Source: a virus
Lineage: Duplodnaviria > Heunggongvirae > Uroviricota > Caudoviricetes
DNA: 4,877 nt
IMG/VR virus record: IMGVR_UViG_2690316278_000003
Strand: one strand, 5' to 3'
The notes beneath the pieces were generated by a model. That model searched no databases, was not told where the DNA came from, and saw only the letters and a program-made list of their open reading frames with translations. Below, piece after piece: positions 1 through 4,700 of the stretch. Numbering within the stretch: the first letter of the stretch is position 1; every line of letters starts with the position of its first letter. A program made the translations under genes and the position numbers.

Positions 1-297
1 ATTGATTTCATCAAACTGCTCATCGTCCATTAGCAACCCCGCATGCGTCAGCGCATCCAGCGGCGCTTTCAGAATATTGTCCAGGTCACGGCGGCGCTTA
101 TCCGGTGGTTCTGCAATAATTTTTATTGCCAACCTTCCGGACAGGCTTAATTTCAGCCGCTGCTGGCGAACAATAAGCGCCACTGCCCGGCGATAACGCT
201 CCCCGGCTTTTGATACAAAATATGTGCTGCCACGACGACGCCAGTAAGTGTTCACCGTCGGCGGGTAAGGTAAAACAAATTCTATGCGCTCGGTCAT
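1..297 (-). CDS. rusA: RusA-family Holliday-junction resolvase, partial (N-terminal 99 codons; C-terminus lies beyond the left window edge)
   Basis: Minus-strand ATG at 297..295 directly after the TAA of the upstream gene (TAAATG). Hand translation gives MTERIEFVLPYPPTVNTYWRRRGSTYF...IIAEPPDKRRRDLDNILKAPLDALTHAGLLMDDEQFDEIN with no stop down to position 1. The PD(K/R)RRRDLDN...DAL...DD block matches the RusA motif recalled from E. coli RusA. Not in the supplied ORF track. Confidence 0.8.
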   Translation of the reverse strand, partial: MTERIEFVLPYPPTVNTYWRRRGSTYFVSKAGERYRRAVALIVRQQRLKLSLSGRLAIKIIAEPPDKRRRDLDNILKAPLDALTHAGLLMDDEQFDEIN

Positions 298-1356
298 TTA
301 TGCTTTCCACTTCAGAACACCCGAATTTCTCGCGTGCATTAAAAAACGAATCAGCAACAACAGCTGACTGCCGTGTTTCTCTTCAAAATCTTTTACTCCG
401 GCATGTAGTTCGTTACGGCATTTACGGCATAACGGAATAACAAACAAATCATCAGCCTTTGTTCCCATCCCTCCCAGTCCATGACCAATGATGTGATGCG
501 GATCATCTGCCTGATTGCCACACGTCATGCATTTCTGCGTTTTTACCCAGCGCGTGTATACAGGCATCTCTTCCCGTTGTGATTTCTGGCGCTGGAGATA
601 CTGAGCCGGTGACTCCGGATCAACGGCAATGCTGACCACCGTCTTTTCCTGTGGTGGGTTCTGTTGCTGGTGGACGTGAGGCAGTAACGCAATATTTTTT
701 GTGCGCTGCTTCAGTATGCTGGTGGCTGTCTGCTCTCCCGGTATGATGTCGCTTTCACTGTACACAGAGCGAATTTTTTCCGCACGCAACCCCAGCGAAC
801 GACGTAATACCGCTTCCGGTAGCGCGTCCGCCACCTGATTGCGGACCGCCCACCAGGATAATTCAGCCAGAGATAATTCACGCTCCTGCGTACCGCTTAT
901 TGCGTGACCGATGACGTCAATCATCCATGCTGACAGGTTTTGATGAGCAAGTTGCTCGAGTGATTCGGATGTCTGGTCACGCAGCTGGTTGTCGCAGTGC
1001 CAGCACAACACCATTGCGCCGGTACCATAACGGTGAATGACGGTTTCGCTGTGATGATAATCGCCGTGTGGCCACTGGCAGGATTTAATATGGCGCAACA
1101 GCCAGTCAGACAATGCACCAGCACCACCAGCAGCACGAATCACCCGTGCGTTACTGAAAAACGGCAGCAATGTTTTGTCTTCCACCAGCGGCTGGCGAGC
1201 GGCAGGAACGACCCCGGACGGCAGATTACGCATGCTTTTTGGTTCCGGCTCCACCAGTATTCTGCCGTTATGGAATGCTGACATTGATTCACGGCCTGGC
1301 TTAACGATAACCAGACCGAGTTCCGGTACCAGAACAGGTCGAAGTAATACCCGCAC
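298..1356 (-). CDS. YdfU-like phage protein (DUF968-type) with Cys/His-rich HNH-like C-terminal motif; 352 aa if the GTG start is used
   Basis: Long 352-codon minus-strand ORF. Apparent start is GTG at 1356..1354, 4 nt after a GGAGG SD and just after the upstream TAA. C-terminal region has CMTCGNQ...DPHHIIGHGLGG...LCRKCRNELH. Size and position (after a rem-like gene, before rusA/Q) match ydfU of the K-12 Qin prophage by recollection. Start codon is uncertain; the first in-frame ATG is codon 25. Confidence 0.75.
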   Translation of the reverse strand: MRVLLRPVLVPELGLVIVKPGRESMSAFHNGRILVEPEPKSMRNLPSGVVPAARQPLVEDKTLLPFFSNARVIRAAGGAGALSDWLLRHIKSCQWPHGDYHHSETVIHRYGTGAMVLCWHCDNQLRDQTSESLEQLAHQNLSAWMIDVIGHAISGTQERELSLAELSWWAVRNQVADALPEAVLRRSLGLRAEKIRSVYSESDIIPGEQTATSILKQRTKNIALLPHVHQQQNPPQEKTVVSIAVDPESPAQYLQRQKSQREEMPVYTRWVKTQKCMTCGNQADDPHHIIGHGLGGMGTKADDLFVIPLCRKCRNELHAGVKDFEEKHGSQLLLLIRFLMHARNSGVLKWKA

Positions 1357-1357
1357 A

Positions 1358-1636
1358 TTACCTCCAGATCCGTTGCTGGAATGTGCGGGACGGACGCGTT
1401 GGCCGTTCGGAGTAAGGGAGCCTGACGGAGATTATCCAGTGACGGTAGTCGAGGCTAAGGGCTTTTTTAACCTCGCATCCGCGCCTGCGGTAACACTGAA
1501 TGAGCCATTCGGCCTGTTCTTCAGTGCATGGGGGATGCTGGTACCAATCAGATTTAAATGCGTGAGAGCGCCGCCCGTGCCTGCTGGCAAAGACGGCTGA
1601 ATTATCAGAATTGTGTAGTCTGGAATTTTGCGCCAT
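1358..1636 (-). CDS. hypothetical small protein (92 aa), translationally coupled to the downstream YdfU-like gene
   Basis: ATG at 1636 preceded by GGAGAAAGCCG (SD-like), the same initiation context used by the 200-aa gene in the other module copy. Stop TAA at 1360..1358 abuts the YdfU-like start. Unusually rich in rare AGG/AGA codons, so coding status is uncertain. Confidence 0.45.
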   Translation of the reverse strand: MAQNSRLHNSDNSAVFASRHGRRSHAFKSDWYQHPPCTEEQAEWLIQCYRRRGCEVKKALSLDYRHWIISVRLPYSERPTRPSRTFQQRIWR

Positions 1637-1702
1637 CGGCTTTCTCCGGTGGCACAGTGTTACTCAACAGGGGTTCAGCCCTGCGCTGAATTGTAGATGA
1701 AT

Positions 1703-1963: not shown

Positions 1964-2083
1964 CAACAGAATCCTTCCAGATAAATAGCACTCCCCTGTT
2001 CGGGGTCCATCCCTCTTCTCCCTGCGCGCTACTTAAGTATTTTTGATTCTATTCCGGCACCATCTAAAACTTCAAACGCGTTG

Positions 2084-2339: not shown

Positions 2340-2404
2340 AGCCTGCTTCTCCTTGCCTTTCGGCACGTAAGAGGCTAACCTAGATTTGCCGTTCATAGAT
2401 TGAG

Positions 2405-2469
<65 letters not shown>

Positions 2470-2471
2470 GC

Positions 2472-2548
2472 TGGCCCACCACCGAGGACTCGAACCTCGC
2501 ACCGTCAACTTAGAAGGTTGATGCTCTATCCGGATGAGCTAGTGGTGG
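2472..2548 (-). tRNA. tRNA-Arg (anticodon UCU)
   Basis: Minus strand CCACCAC-TA-GCTC-ATCCGGATA-GAGC-A-TCAAC-CTTCTAA-GTTGA-CGGTG-CGAGG-TTCGAGT-CCTCG-GTGGTGG-G-CCA. All 7 acceptor pairs, anticodon stem and T-stem form; 77 nt with encoded CCA. Anticodon TCT in a 7-nt loop. Confidence 0.85.
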
Positions 2549-2549
2549 T

Positions 2550-2626
2550 TGGTGGCCCTTGCTGGACTTGAACCAGCGACCTGGCGATTATGAGTCGCTC
2601 GCTCTGACCAACTGAGCTAAAGGGCC
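2550..2626 (-). tRNA. tRNA-Ile2-like (anticodon CAU, ileX/ileZ type; automated tools may call it tRNA-Met)
   Basis: Minus strand GGCCCTT-TA-GCTC-AGTTGGTCA-GAGC-G-AGCGA-CTCATAA-TCGCC-AGGTC-GCTGG-TTCAAGT-CCAGC-AAGGGCC-A-CCA; 77 nt, acceptor fully paired, CCA encoded. Acceptor and T-arm closely resemble E. coli ileX as recalled. Separated from tRNA-Arg by 1 nt. Confidence 0.85.
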
Positions 2627-2815: not shown

Positions 2816-3370
2816 TCAAAAAGCAATAACTTTTTTCTCTATACCAAAAGCCATAACCATTGGTTTGTACAAAATAAATTCTGCCACCTTTAGCCAATGC
2901 TCAATGCGTCTTTCACAGGTTCTTAAACTCCATTTCGGGTGTGCATCATTCAGCAGTTCAGCCATTTTGCGTTTGGTCATCCCCCGCCCCTCATACCGTT
3001 GCCGAAGGACGCTAATCAATCCTGGATGCTCTGCCAGCACCTCACTTATGACCCGATCAATACATAACGCCTCTGCATCAGTACAATGCGCCAGCCAGCT
3101 CTTTTGCTTACCGTTAATCATATCCCGCAAAAAAGCCTCAAGTTCAGACTTGTTCAGACCTGCTTTTTTCATCCTCCGGAGCGCCTCGTTAATTGCCGTT
3201 TTTGTCAGCTTTTTAGAGGTCAACATCAGGTTAAACATATTCCCCGTCTTACCGCCACCAATATACGACCAGCGCCCCCACATACGTAGTTTTCCCTGAA
3301 TCCAGACACTTTCCAGCGTGGTGAGACGAAGGTGTTCTCCGCTTTTTCCTGTATTCGTTGGGTAAATCAT
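2816..3370 (-). CDS. Putative late-gene regulator in the antiterminator-Q position (184 aa); assignment by synteny only
   Basis: ATG at 3370..3368 preceded by AAGGAGG, overlapping the YbcO-like stop (TTATGA). Product begins MIYPTNTGKSGEHLRL. Sits between a ybcO-like gene and the terminator/tRNA cluster, where Q lies in lambdoid and Stx phages. No Q sequence motif recognised. The 40-codon upstream extension in the track is rejected. Confidence 0.55.
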   Translation of the reverse strand: MIYPTNTGKSGEHLRLTTLESVWIQGKLRMWGRWSYIGGGKTGNMFNLMLTSKKLTKTAINEALRRMKKAGLNKSELEAFLRDMINGKQKSWLAHCTDAEALCIDRVISEVLAEHPGLISVLRQRYEGRGMTKRKMAELLNDAHPKWSLRTCERRIEHWLKVAEFILYKPMVMAFGIEKKVIAF

Positions 3371-3657
3371 AAATATCCCTCCTTTCTCCAGATTTCTTGT
3401 GTGCGAAAAACACCTTCTGCATGCATCAGGCGTAATTCTTCTTTGGTGTAATCGCTGGTTTTTACCCGCCCGTCGATTAAATCGTGGCACGAGCTACAGG
3501 CAATCGCTGCCTGCATATCGTGTGGCTTTATCGCTGTTCCGCACGTTCCCGCCAGTCGGTAATGCGCCAGCACAGACGTTTCCGGATCGTGATTGCAGTA
3601 GCCAGGAATTCTGACGGTGCACATCTGCCCCCGCGCCGCTTTACGTAAATCCACCAT
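3367..3657 (-). CDS. ybcO: YbcO-like (DUF1364) phage protein, putative nuclease, 96 aa
   Basis: MVDLRKAARGQMCTVRIPGYCNHDPETSVLAHYRLAGTCGTAIKPHD...IACSSCHDLIDGR matches the recalled DLP12 YbcO pattern (ADLRKAARG..C.VRIPG.CN..PETSVLAH.RL...). ATG at 3657..3655 overlaps the upstream TAA by 1 nt. Confidence 0.85.
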   Translation of the reverse strand: MVDLRKAARGQMCTVRIPGYCNHDPETSVLAHYRLAGTCGTAIKPHDMQAAIACSSCHDLIDGRVKTSDYTKEELRLMHAEGVFRTQEIWRKEGYL

Positions 3658-4256
3658 TACGCAAACTCCAGCAGCTGCGCGGCCACATTTTCGACTTGTT
3701 CCGGAGAGGAAAATTTACGGAACAGAATCCAGTTCCACAGCACATTCAGAACAGATTTATAAACCTGCTGAAACTCGGTTTCGTCCATATTCGCAAACGC
3801 GATAGATTTCGCCCGACACCCACGGCTACCGTCCGGATAAAAATGCTCGGTGTAAAATCCAGCCTGAATGGTTACCCACTCGCGAAAAGCCTCAAACGAC
3901 TTTAGCAATGCCGTATCCCGGGTTCTGCGTGTCGCAACTGTATTCAGATATTGCTCTGCGGCTTCGCTCAGAGCTGGCGTATGTTCCCGGCCTACTGATT
4001 CACACAGGTAATCAACGAAACCGGACACCAGTTTTCGTTCGCGAGGCGTGATCGCCCCACCGACCGGAGTCCAGTAATCGAAACCCAGTTGCAGGAGTTT
4101 GAAAAAACGCTTGTGGAATGCGTAGTTACACACACGCTTAAAGTCTGCGTGTATCCACTCACCTATTTTGATTTGATGCAGAAAATCGCAACTCTCCGGC
4201 GTCGCCGGGAGAAGTAATCCGGAAGAGGTTTGTTTGACCAGTTGTATATGTGCCAT
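3657..4256 (-). CDS. Hypothetical phage nin-region protein (200 aa), possibly DUF1367-family
   Basis: ATG at 4256..4254 preceded by GGAGAAAGCCG; product begins MAHIQLVKQTSSGLLLPATPE. Continuous ORF to TAA at 3659..3657, coupled to ybcO. The track's 14-codon 5' extension has no SD. The DUF1367 suggestion rests on typical prophage gene order and is unverified. Confidence 0.7.
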   Translation of the reverse strand: MAHIQLVKQTSSGLLLPATPESCDFLHQIKIGEWIHADFKRVCNYAFHKRFFKLLQLGFDYWTPVGGAITPRERKLVSGFVDYLCESVGREHTPALSEAAEQYLNTVATRRTRDTALLKSFEAFREWVTIQAGFYTEHFYPDGSRGCRAKSIAFANMDETEFQQVYKSVLNVLWNWILFRKFSSPEQVENVAAQLLEFA

Positions 4257-4294
4257 CGGCTTTCTCCGGTGGCACGGTGTTACACAGCAGGAGT

Positions 4295-4582
4295 TCAATC
4301 CTGCTCAAGATTGTAGATGAGTTTATTCTTCAGCAAAAGCAGAAAACCAGCCTTAAAACCAATCTCTTTCAAAACCCGTAATGATGTGACAAATTCGTCC
4401 TCACGCAAAATAAAACCGTCCGTCAGAAGTCCATTACAAAAATAAAATAACACAGCACCGCTCTTCCTTTGTTGAGATTGCAAACATCTAATGCGGCAAT
4501 GGCTGACAATCGCTCCATTCTCAACGCGCACAGCATAGAGGCCATTTTCACTAAAAATTTCACGCAATTCTTCGATTTTCAT
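4295..4582 (-). CDS. Rem-like small phage protein, second copy (95 aa, divergent extended C-terminus)
   Basis: ATG at 4582..4580 with GGAAGGA SD; MKIEELREIFSENGLYAVRVENGAIVSHCRIRCLQSQQRKSG. Paralog of 1703..1963; the C-terminus differs after KAGF because of a 1-nt difference in a homopolymer. Confidence 0.7.
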   Translation of the reverse strand: MKIEELREIFSENGLYAVRVENGAIVSHCRIRCLQSQQRKSGAVLFYFCNGLLTDGFILREDEFVTSLRVLKEIGFKAGFLLLLKNKLIYNLEQD

Positions 4583-4700
4583 CTTCAGAATCCTTCCAGA
4601 TAAATAGCTCTCCCCTGTTCGGGGTCCATCCCTCTTCTCCCTGCGCGCTACTTAAGTGAGTCGATTCTATCTGCGAAGGTGCGCGAATCAAATTCACCGG

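Follow-up and report, generated by a model that had tools for sequence, protein, structure and literature searches.

Results

The locus and its two leader copies

We analyzed a 4,877-nucleotide (nt) stretch of DNA from a virus of the Caudoviricetes (IMG/VR record IMGVR_UViG_2690316278_000003), the whole of which is referred to here as the window and whose genes all lie on the minus strand. It consists of two tandem hok-rem-nin(-Q) modules with a Q gene, a terminator and tRNA genes between them (Table 1). In both modules, the gap between rem, the gene of the antirepressor of the DicA repressor in Qin-type prophages (PMC10448788), and the first gene of the following cassette carries two adjacent predicted hairpins, hairpin 1 and hairpin 2, preceded by a -10-like hexamer. 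This short element, which we call the leader, is the subject of the present work. The first gene behind it is the 92-amino acid (aa) open reading frame in copy 1 and, in copy 2, a homologue of the recombination mediator IrsA (Pfam DUF1367, E 9e-96; PHROG NinB/Orf recombination mediator), whose operon is closed up by stop/start codon overlaps (TAATG and ATGA). The copy 1-headed operon runs to the window end within rusA, and Q comes after rusA in related phages.

Table 1. Features of the window in the order of transcription. ORF, open reading frame; SD, Shine-Dalgarno sequence; MFE, minimum free energy.
Feature	Position	Strand	Description
hok end		-	
rem copy 2	4582-4295	-	
Copy 2 -10 hexamer	4310..4315	-	TACAAT; same register as copy 1
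Copy 2 covariance-model match	4242..4310	-	full; 52.0 bits, E about 2e-12
Copy 2 hairpin 1	4286..4305	-	AGCAGGA-UUGAAC-UCCUGCU; MFE fold, -11.0 kcal/mol, z -3.4
Copy 2 hairpin 2	4250..4275	-	GUGCCA/UGGCAC stem; -15.0 kcal/mol, z -5.25
Copy 2 SD and start codon	4267-4264; 4256-4254	-	GGAG and AUG of the DUF1367/IrsA gene, in hairpin 2
Copy 2-headed operon	2816..4256	-	DUF1367, YbcO, DUF1133
DUF1367/IrsA gene	4256-3657	-	
YbcO gene	3657-3367	-	
Q-like gene	3370-2816	-	DUF1133 antiterminator
Terminator		-	
tRNA cluster	2404-2626	-	
mok/hok	2396-2184	-	
mok/hok terminator	2115-2098	-	
rem copy 1	1966-1703	-	
Copy 1 -35 candidates (weak)	1718-1713; 1716-1711	-	TTTTGA, 17-nt spacer; TTGAAG, 15-nt spacer
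Copy 1 -10 hexamer	1690..1695	-	TACAAT; overlaps the sequence that follows the rem stop codon (1705-1703)
Copy 1 covariance-model match	1622..1690	-	full; 52.9 bits, E about 1e-12
Copy 1 hairpin 1	1667..1684	-	CAGGG-CUGAAC-CCCUG (1683..1668) plus G1684·U1667 pair; MFE fold and RNAalifold consensus
Copy 1 linker	1657..1666	-	UGAGUAACAC; mostly single-stranded by prediction
Copy 1 hairpin 2	1629..1656	-	UGUGCCA/UGGCGCA stem, one U·G; inner CGG/CCG helix; -15.7 kcal/mol, z -4.2
Copy 1 SD and start codon	1647-1644; 1636-1634	-	GGAG and AUG of the 92-aa ORF, in hairpin 2
Copy 1-headed operon	1..1636	-	92-aa ORF, DUF968/YdfU HNH, RusA; genes abutting; RusA cut by window end
92-aa ORF	1636-1358	-	
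DUF968/YdfU HNH protein gene	1356-298	-	
rusA	297-1	-	

Structure of the leader

The initial annotation of the window, made from the sequence alone, had placed a hairpin with a variable stem and a constant loop family at 1668-1683 and 4286-4305. Both positions were confirmed, as was the conservation of the loop (CUGAAC in copy 1, UUGAAC in copy 2) over different stems. The structure prediction proposed at that time gave a clear result, since RNAfold returned both hairpins as the MFE and the centroid structure in both copies. The copy 1 leader (86 nt) folds at -27.5 kcal/mol (z -3.18) and the copy 2 leader (84 nt) at -26.8 kcal/mol (z -4.68), and 0 of 200 dinucleotide shuffles of either reached the native folding energy.

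In both copies, the 3' arm of hairpin 2 consists of the UG of the start codon and the four to five bases that come after it, with codons 2-3 lying in this arm. Among the relatives described below, the energy of hairpin 2 lies between -11.2 and -22.3 kcal/mol (mean -15.6), and the MFE folds of 68 of 68 leaders pair the UG of the AUG, so that the start codon lies in a stable, conserved and covarying helix, which is the structure expected of a translational operator. The SD sequence had also been thought to be occluded by this stem. That part of the proposal did not stand: GGAG is mostly exposed, lying mainly in the apical part of hairpin 2, and pairing is limited to the two G's, which belong to a predicted inner helix of 3 bp (CGG/CCG) that is not kept in relatives.

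The two hairpins are predicted to be structurally independent, without alternative pairing with each other: masking of the 5' arm of hairpin 1 left hairpin 2 intact in 68 of 69 leaders. A four-segment attenuator, or any coupling between hairpins 1 and 2, was rejected on this test. As a separate observation, the leaders of one subfamily (L287, L348 and L294 among others) can form a competing CUGCUG-CGC-CAGCAG hairpin that uses the 5' arm of hairpin 2; RNAfold chooses either form at near-equal energy depending on the member, and the alternative does not occur in other subfamilies. Two further ideas were dropped. Stop codons in all three frames before hairpin 2 were in modest excess (1.84 versus 1.18 frames), largely due to the UGA of the hairpin-1 loop, and a sigma-54-like TGGCAC on the plus strand is the hairpin-2 arm itself, with the -12 element out of register as judged by eye.

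Covariation across relatives

Copies 1 and 2 differ by one compensatory pair in hairpin 1 (G-C versus A-U) plus a G·U versus G-C exchange, and by themselves would be weak evidence; it is the comparison with 69 distinct relatives that makes the evidence for the structures strong. Two alignments were used, one of 41 non-redundant leaders built with MAFFT and one of the 69 distinct leaders aligned to a covariance model. From the MAFFT alignment, RNAalifold predicted both helices unaided; 80.5% of the cells were paired, versus 29-47% with the partner slid, and the covariation score was 0.271 versus 0.08-0.11 when slid, a value reached by 0 of 500 shuffles. In the covariance-model alignment, 90.5% of the cells were paired (27-43% when slid) and 8 of 13 pairs showed compensatory changes on both sides: 4 of 5 pairs in helix 1, with 90% of cells paired, and 4 of 8 in helix 2, with 90.7%. 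This second alignment leans towards the structure because it was fitted to it, whereas the MAFFT result carries no such bias.

The changes extend to the coding sequence. The central pair of hairpin 2 is C-G in 32 leaders, U·G in 22 and U-A in 14, across several genera; in Photorhabdus, the compensatory change GUGUCAU/AUGACGC alters the protein (Ala2 to Thr), and in Citrobacter braakii the change GCACCAU/GUGGUGC brings a GUG start and Ala2 to Val. The loop of hairpin 1 behaves in the opposite way: its bases U, G, A, (A), C, like the closing G-C pair, show little or no variation among the 41 non-redundant leaders, while the stem covaries freely. Altogether, the covariation is strong and indicates that both hairpins are real RNA structures maintained in evolution. 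The claim of covariation made from the two window copies is therefore upheld in both alignments.

Inverted repeats acting at the DNA level, as an operator, a recombination site or a cruciform, or a functionless resemblance inherited by duplicates, might also be considered, as the copies are paralogous (85% identity over the hok-rem module, with the homology ending a few bases past the ATG of the next gene) and the leader sits at a mosaic junction. The 68 G·U cells of the leader alignment are, however, C·A mismatches on the other strand, where the pairs are not equally well kept; the loop of hairpin 2, its spacer, varies from 11 to 24 nt; and stem sequences differ freely between genera with pairing kept. 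These features point to the RNA of the sense strand and against a DNA site, and we regard such explanations as extremely improbable.

Distribution and specificity

Loci collected through rem were uninformative, since all 80 shared 90% identity or more and the same gene followed in each, and a first scan of genome contigs with rem gave no matches. Loci collected through the downstream genes were informative, and a broader sample was built from DUF1367 genes with one genome per species. The two hairpins precede DUF1367 and 92-aa-family genes in many upstream contexts that lack rem, and no enterobacterial DUF1367 gene obtained together with its 5' end was without the leader, even at a protein identity as low as 42%. 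It was found in Escherichia, Salmonella, Citrobacter, Pantoea, Erwinia, Serratia, Yersinia, Klebsiella, Enterobacter, Pectobacterium, Rouxiella, Xenorhabdus and Photorhabdus; non-enterobacterial DUF1367 genes lacked it. All follow a common plan: a TAnAAT hexamer, 5-8 nt, a stem of 4-9 bp with a loop containing YUGAAC, a linker of 5-18 nt (66% A+C, and 65% unpaired in the MFE folds of the 69 leaders), and a stem of 6-11 bp with the 3' arm AUGGCRCA.

At least 13 unrelated upstream sequences adjoin the leader, and behind it come three unrelated first genes, namely DUF1367/IrsA, the 92-aa ORF and K-12 ylcH. Some leaders directly follow the hok terminator or another intrinsic terminator and others follow unrelated ORFs, among them ImmA-, HTH- and AraC-type genes. 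The description of hairpin 1 as a hairpin after rem does not survive this comparison; the link with rem had arisen because the upstream gene is often Rem-like (11 upstream ORFs matched Rem in phmmer, from E. coli, Salmonella, Pantoea and Enterobacter among others), antirepressor, leader and first nin gene being a common arrangement. The claim that recombination occurred at this junction holds, as the leader stands at a point where lambdoid modules reassort.

A 3' element of rem, either a terminator or a 3' stabilizer, would suit the position immediately after rem in the window, as in lambda the terminator tR2 occupies the homologous slot between ren and ninB with a similar CATCTACA string ahead of it. 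Hairpin 1 is, however, followed by UUGAGUAAC and GUGUAACAC in the two copies, which do not make the U-tract that an intrinsic terminator has after its G+C-rich hairpin; the terminator scan of the window listed neither hairpin, and no U-tract follows hairpin 2 either. In addition, the leader occurs without rem and right after real terminators, and in copy 2 rem would still be undergoing translation through the hairpin, its UGA stop codon in the 95-aa variant (4582..4295 in the ORF table) being that of the hairpin-1 loop. This makes a rem 3' element very improbable, and the conserved hexamer of its own favors hairpin 1 as the 5' end of the next transcript.

The covariance model was specific. A search of both strands of 100 viral contigs (about 1 Mb) yielded exactly one significant match in each; the complete phages tested, PPompW and Gifsy-1, also had one each, and there was none in HK022 (whole-genome best 11 bits, E 0.1) or in the stretch of lambda between ren and ninB. 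E. coli K-12 has two matches to the model: the Qin copy separates rem from ydfU and stands ahead of an unannotated 92-aa ORF, and the DLP12 copy precedes the small gene ylcH, which starts AUGCGCAC. Among 5,426 complete E. coli genomes, 2,855 carry a leader of the rem type. No family of Rfam 15 matched 1622-1690 or 4242-4310 even at E<=1, nor was any found over the leader in 8 related loci, and no description of the leader was found in the literature on ybcN, ylcH, irsA and DUF1367. The leader is an undescribed and widespread RNA motif of a familiar mechanistic kind.

Some observations on individual members can be added. The Qin ORF of K-12 (L442 2807-3085, or NC_000913.3 about 1,644,306-1,644,584, minus strand) is intact and homologous to the window ORF at 1358-1636, and carries no RefSeq annotation. 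The DLP12 leader (L441 3508-3582) scored 28.6 bits though outside the seed alignment; its hairpin 1 has 9 bp (UCACCGGAG/CUCCGGUGA, loop CCUGAACAA) and its hairpin 2 has an 11-bp stem with one bulged U, in which the ylcH AUG is buried and GGGA lies in the tetraloop. In Xenorhabdus (L394, L396, L398, L400, L402, L405 and L412), the upstream context has a GTCGGTAGC(A/G)TAA string, about 35-45 nt ahead of the -10 hexamer, and after it a short GGGTT-GTA-AACCC hairpin; this string may be similar to the ops/JUMPStart element (GGCGGTAGCGTG) that RfaH uses.

Predicted promoter and transcript 5' end

For the promoter analysis, 13 unrelated contexts were distinguished in the upstream DNA. Their hexamer reads T (12/13), A (13/13), n, A, A, T (13/13), as a sigma-70 -10 element does, and is separated by 5-8 nt from the base at which pairing in hairpin 1 begins. 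The best -35 at 16-18 nt matched on average 3.38 of 6 positions, against 2.48 ± 0.24 in shuffled sequences and a maximum of 3.31 in 1000 shuffles. An extended -10 TG was present in 4 contexts, and either a -35 of at least 4/6 or a TG in 8 of 13. Near-consensus promoters were seen in Yersinia (TTGACA-16-TAAAAT) and E. coli (TTTACA-16-TATACT). From the hexamer spacing, the transcript is predicted to begin at the base of hairpin 1, about G1684 or C1683 in copy 1, and leaders placed right behind terminators are in keeping with a transcription unit that starts there.

Gifsy-1 of Salmonella provides an anchor for this assignment. Its gene order is dinI, small antirepressor, irsA (STM2620), two small genes plus NinG, and Q (STM2617), and the single model match in the whole phage falls in the gap between the antirepressor gene (gfoA) and irsA (36638..36568, 47 bits), where TTGACT-18-CATAAT is followed after 7 nt by ACUGG-CCUGAACAA-CCAGU. 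From the predicted +1 (A36632) to the start codon of antQ (Q) the distance is 1,606 nt. In Hershko-Shalev et al. (2016; PMC4825925, citing Kroger et al. 2013), the transcription start site (TSS) of the operon SL2582-SL2579 is given as "1,600 bases upstream of antQ", which agrees with the predicted +1 and supports the promoter assignment; the LexA-controlled dinI promoter would be more than 2,200 nt upstream. By the -10 spacing, hairpin 1 is predicted to start about 0-3 nt from the 5' end of the RNA, which is consistent with this TSS statement.

That paper also reports that expression of the antirepressor raises the RNA of the antQ operon. Furthermore, dinI, antirepressor and irsA of the Gifsy phages have been described as one LexA-controlled operon (Lemire et al., PMC3121763), so the leader can also be reached by read-through. 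This raises the alternative that the element acts within a longer antirepressor-irsA transcript, its A/U-rich hexamer serving as an RNase E entry site and hairpin 1 as a protective 5' end for the downstream RNA (or a 3' barrier for the upstream one), by which the antirepressor would be uncoupled from the nin-Q mRNA. An A/U-rich single strand adjoining a stem-loop is the classical RNase E context, and many genomes have a Rem-like antirepressor gene just upstream whose stop codon is 8-19 nt before hairpin 1. Nevertheless, the hexamer carries the -10 signature TAnnnT together with an enriched -35 or a TG in unrelated upstream DNA, it is kept where an intrinsic terminator lies immediately upstream, and a primary TSS is reported there in Gifsy-1 (PMC4825925). 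We therefore consider processing of a longer transcript improbable.

Other features of the window

The whole window was contiguous in 0 of 5,426 complete E. coli genomes; its best place covered 80% of it in 6 pieces at 90% identity. In the tRNA cluster downstream of the Q-like gene, ARAGORN called a tRNA-Met (CAT) and a tRNA-Arg (TCT), and a third, truncated tRNA-like stretch at 2404-2462 was detected with Rfam (33.5 bits, model positions 8-63) without an ARAGORN call. Sub-threshold matches to the Rfam family IsrK, a small RNA (sRNA) of Salmonella prophages (20-27 bits against a gathering score of 50), were obtained at 2094-2175 and 2716-2789 on the minus strand and in two related loci (L287 442-523 and L208 156-237), in regions with a terminator, behind hok and behind the Q-like gene; the isrK of Gifsy-1 comes directly after antQ.

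The A-run of rem copy 2 (4295-4582, minus strand) is 1 base shorter than that of copy 1, giving a frameshift near the 3' end and a 95-aa product. A cluster of 95-aa Rem-family proteins, 80% identical to copy 1, has 82 member sequences from Shigella and E. coli, so this length is common. The 5' untranslated regions (UTR) of the two rem copies (1967-2040 and 4583-4658) share a block of about 80 nt that is nearly identical and has a CCCC-GAACA-GGGG hairpin; these blocks fold no more stably than shuffles (z +0.4 and +0.6). Finally, phrog_1212 (66 positions) aligns to residues 27-92 only of the 92-aa ORF (1358-1636), and the first 26 residues, including the codons within hairpin 2, may be an N-terminal extension specific to leader-fused copies.

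Discussion

Taken together, these results point towards the two hairpins and the hexamer upstream of them being the promoter and 5' leader of the irsA-nin-Q operon, and not the tail of rem, a reading to which we assign a probability of about 0.6. A -10 element of the sigma-70 type would set the start of the transcript at the base of hairpin 1, and this 5'-terminal hairpin could then stabilize the RNA, as a stem-loop without a 5' overhang protects mRNA from 5'-end-dependent decay. Hairpin 2, whose G+C-rich stem (about -15 kcal/mol) encloses the start codon together with codons 2-3 and whose loop presents the SD, would keep translation initiation of the first gene low or conditional. A stem this strong over the AUG lowers initiation by orders of magnitude unless the ribosome is helped, and the exposed SD may offer, together with the single-stranded linker, a standby platform for it. 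Given that the genes of the operon overlap or abut and that Q is harmful in a lysogen, restraint of the first cistron would damp the downstream genes through lost translational coupling and possibly Rho-dependent polarity, and Q would be kept low when the promoter fires in a lysogen; Q of Gifsy-1 is described as toxic to the host when over-made (PMC4825925). The role that we consider most likely is translational control at this junction. The initial annotation, which proposed structured translational or stability control at the boundary, is therefore partly supported, being right in spirit and wrong in attributing the structure to rem.

Several points weigh against this interpretation. First, the rem-type copies of the window have a poor -35 (3/6, or a 15-nt spacer) and a consensus scan calls no promoter there; copy 1 is missed by a simple scan because of this -35, and the window leader promoter may be weak. 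Second, promoter-like sites precede both rem copies, immediately behind the hok terminators (2075..2046, TTGAAG-18-TAGAAT, and 4691..4664, TTGATT-16-TAGAAT, minus strand), and much of the transcription of the window may come from them, making hairpin 1 internal. Third, the published Gifsy-1 TSS is a rounded and secondary statement ("1,600 bases"), and no TSS at the leader was found in the searched parts of the promoter and TSS supplements for K-12, EDL933 and Salmonella Typhimurium (Cappable-seq, dRNA-seq/Term-seq, ROSE, EDL933 and Salmonella ChIP-exo), which were partial tables or came without sequences. Besides, hairpin 1 is thermodynamically weak in many members (mean -5.3 kcal/mol, weakest -0.9), and its invariant loop is unexplained by a purely protective role. 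Finally, the rut-like bias of C over G in the first 80 nt of the first genes is only modest and not decisive.

An invariant loop on an often weak stem suggests a sequence-specific partner, and promoter and leader function can be extended into a factor-dependent translational switch, in which the YUGAAC loop would bind a protein or RNA that is conserved in Enterobacterales or in their lambdoid phages, and hairpin 2 would be opened or bypassed. The near invariance of the loop and closing pair over a freely covarying stem is what such a switch would show, without such help the gene would be almost silenced by a -15 kcal/mol hairpin over its AUG, and analogues exist in Com of phage Mu acting at mom and in the sRNAs that open the rpoS leader. 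The occurrence of three unrelated first-gene families makes it unlikely that the partner is the gene product. On the other hand, no candidate partner emerged from our analysis, hairpins 1 and 2 do not exchange pairing, and the Mu com-mom region has no sequence resemblance to the leader. The switch is compatible with all observations and is the most interesting open possibility, one that we nonetheless rate as somewhat unlikely.

A two-hairpin RNA just downstream of a promoter and upstream of Q also recalls promoter-proximal antitermination RNAs, such as lambda nut/boxB or HK022 put, which would allow read-through of nin-region terminators to Q in lambdoid prophages without N; the Qin-like phage PPompW has no annotated N, and the hairpin-1 loop presumably resembles boxB-type loops (CUAACC in phi21, GAAnA in lambda). 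The leaders contain, however, no boxA-like (CGCUCUUUA-like) string, the element is present in a single copy per phage with none near early promoters or the immunity region, and the best match in HK022 is the insignificant one given above. Moreover, hairpin 2 overlaps the ribosome-binding site and start codon, so that translation would melt it. A scan of the complete PPompW genome for YUGAAC hairpins, made with a nut-like element in mind, gave chance matches in structural genes only and none near dicA/dicC, and the idea was rejected. We hold an antitermination RNA to be quite improbable.

Returning to the promoter and leader of the irsA-nin-Q operon, the three unrelated first genes begin with Met-Ala or Met-Arg (AUGGCRCA or AUGCGCA), which is accounted for by the RNA stem constraining their first codons, and the leader would also explain why this junction is a recurrent mosaic boundary. 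The leader-headed operon ends in Q, which turns on the lysis and virion genes. In many of these prophages no N is annotated, and control is exerted by small antirepressors (Rem, GfoA/GftA) whose genes lie immediately upstream. It might be speculated, as an unlikely but attractive idea, that the leader is the switch that times Q in lambdoid prophages lacking N and nut, a conserved host or phage factor reading YUGAAC and then opening hairpin 2 or making the polymerase resistant to termination. If this were true, the decision to make the late-gene activator would be taken on an RNA of roughly 70 nt. In any case, a covarying, unannotated leader at the point where Q may be silenced or released is a concrete and easily mutated target.

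Comparison with known systems

The closest known system is the antQ operon of Gifsy-1 (SL2582-SL2579), which is the same unit, with an irsA/DUF1367 homologue as its first gene and a Q-like antiterminator as its last. The window copies differ from it in being of the E. coli type, with rem upstream and a different Q family (DUF1133). The passages of PMC4825925 on this operon give the TSS and the operon membership and no leader hairpins, covariation or start-codon occlusion.

In phage Mu, the com-mom region contains two adjacent RNA hairpins, the downstream one occluding the regulated start and the upstream one being the recognition site. The leader shares with it the two adjacent hairpins and the occlusion of the start by the downstream one; it differs in having no sequence similarity and in exposing its SD in the loop. 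Stabilizing stem-loops of the ompA 5' UTR type are also comparable, since the leader stem-loop is predicted at or a few nt from the +1, but such stabilizers need no specific loop, whereas the leader has an invariant loop on an often weak stem.

In lambda, tR2 occupies the same slot between a small regulator gene and the first nin gene, with the CATCTACA string upstream, but tR2 is an intrinsic terminator with a U-tract, which the leader does not have; the model misses the lambda segment and ninB has no start-codon hairpin. The lambda ren-ninB gap (L439 670-745; lambda 40,569-40,644) begins CCATCTACATTAC, which is similar to the CATCTACAAT that carries the rem-type -10, and from there tR2 replaces the hairpins. 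Lastly, the boxB hairpins of the nut sites of lambda, P22 and phi21 and the put sites of HK022 are, like the leader, small promoter-proximal hairpins with conserved loops and covarying stems. The leader is set apart from them by the lack of boxA and of a match in HK022, by its single copy away from pL and pR, and by its overlap with the ribosome-binding site of the gene that it precedes.

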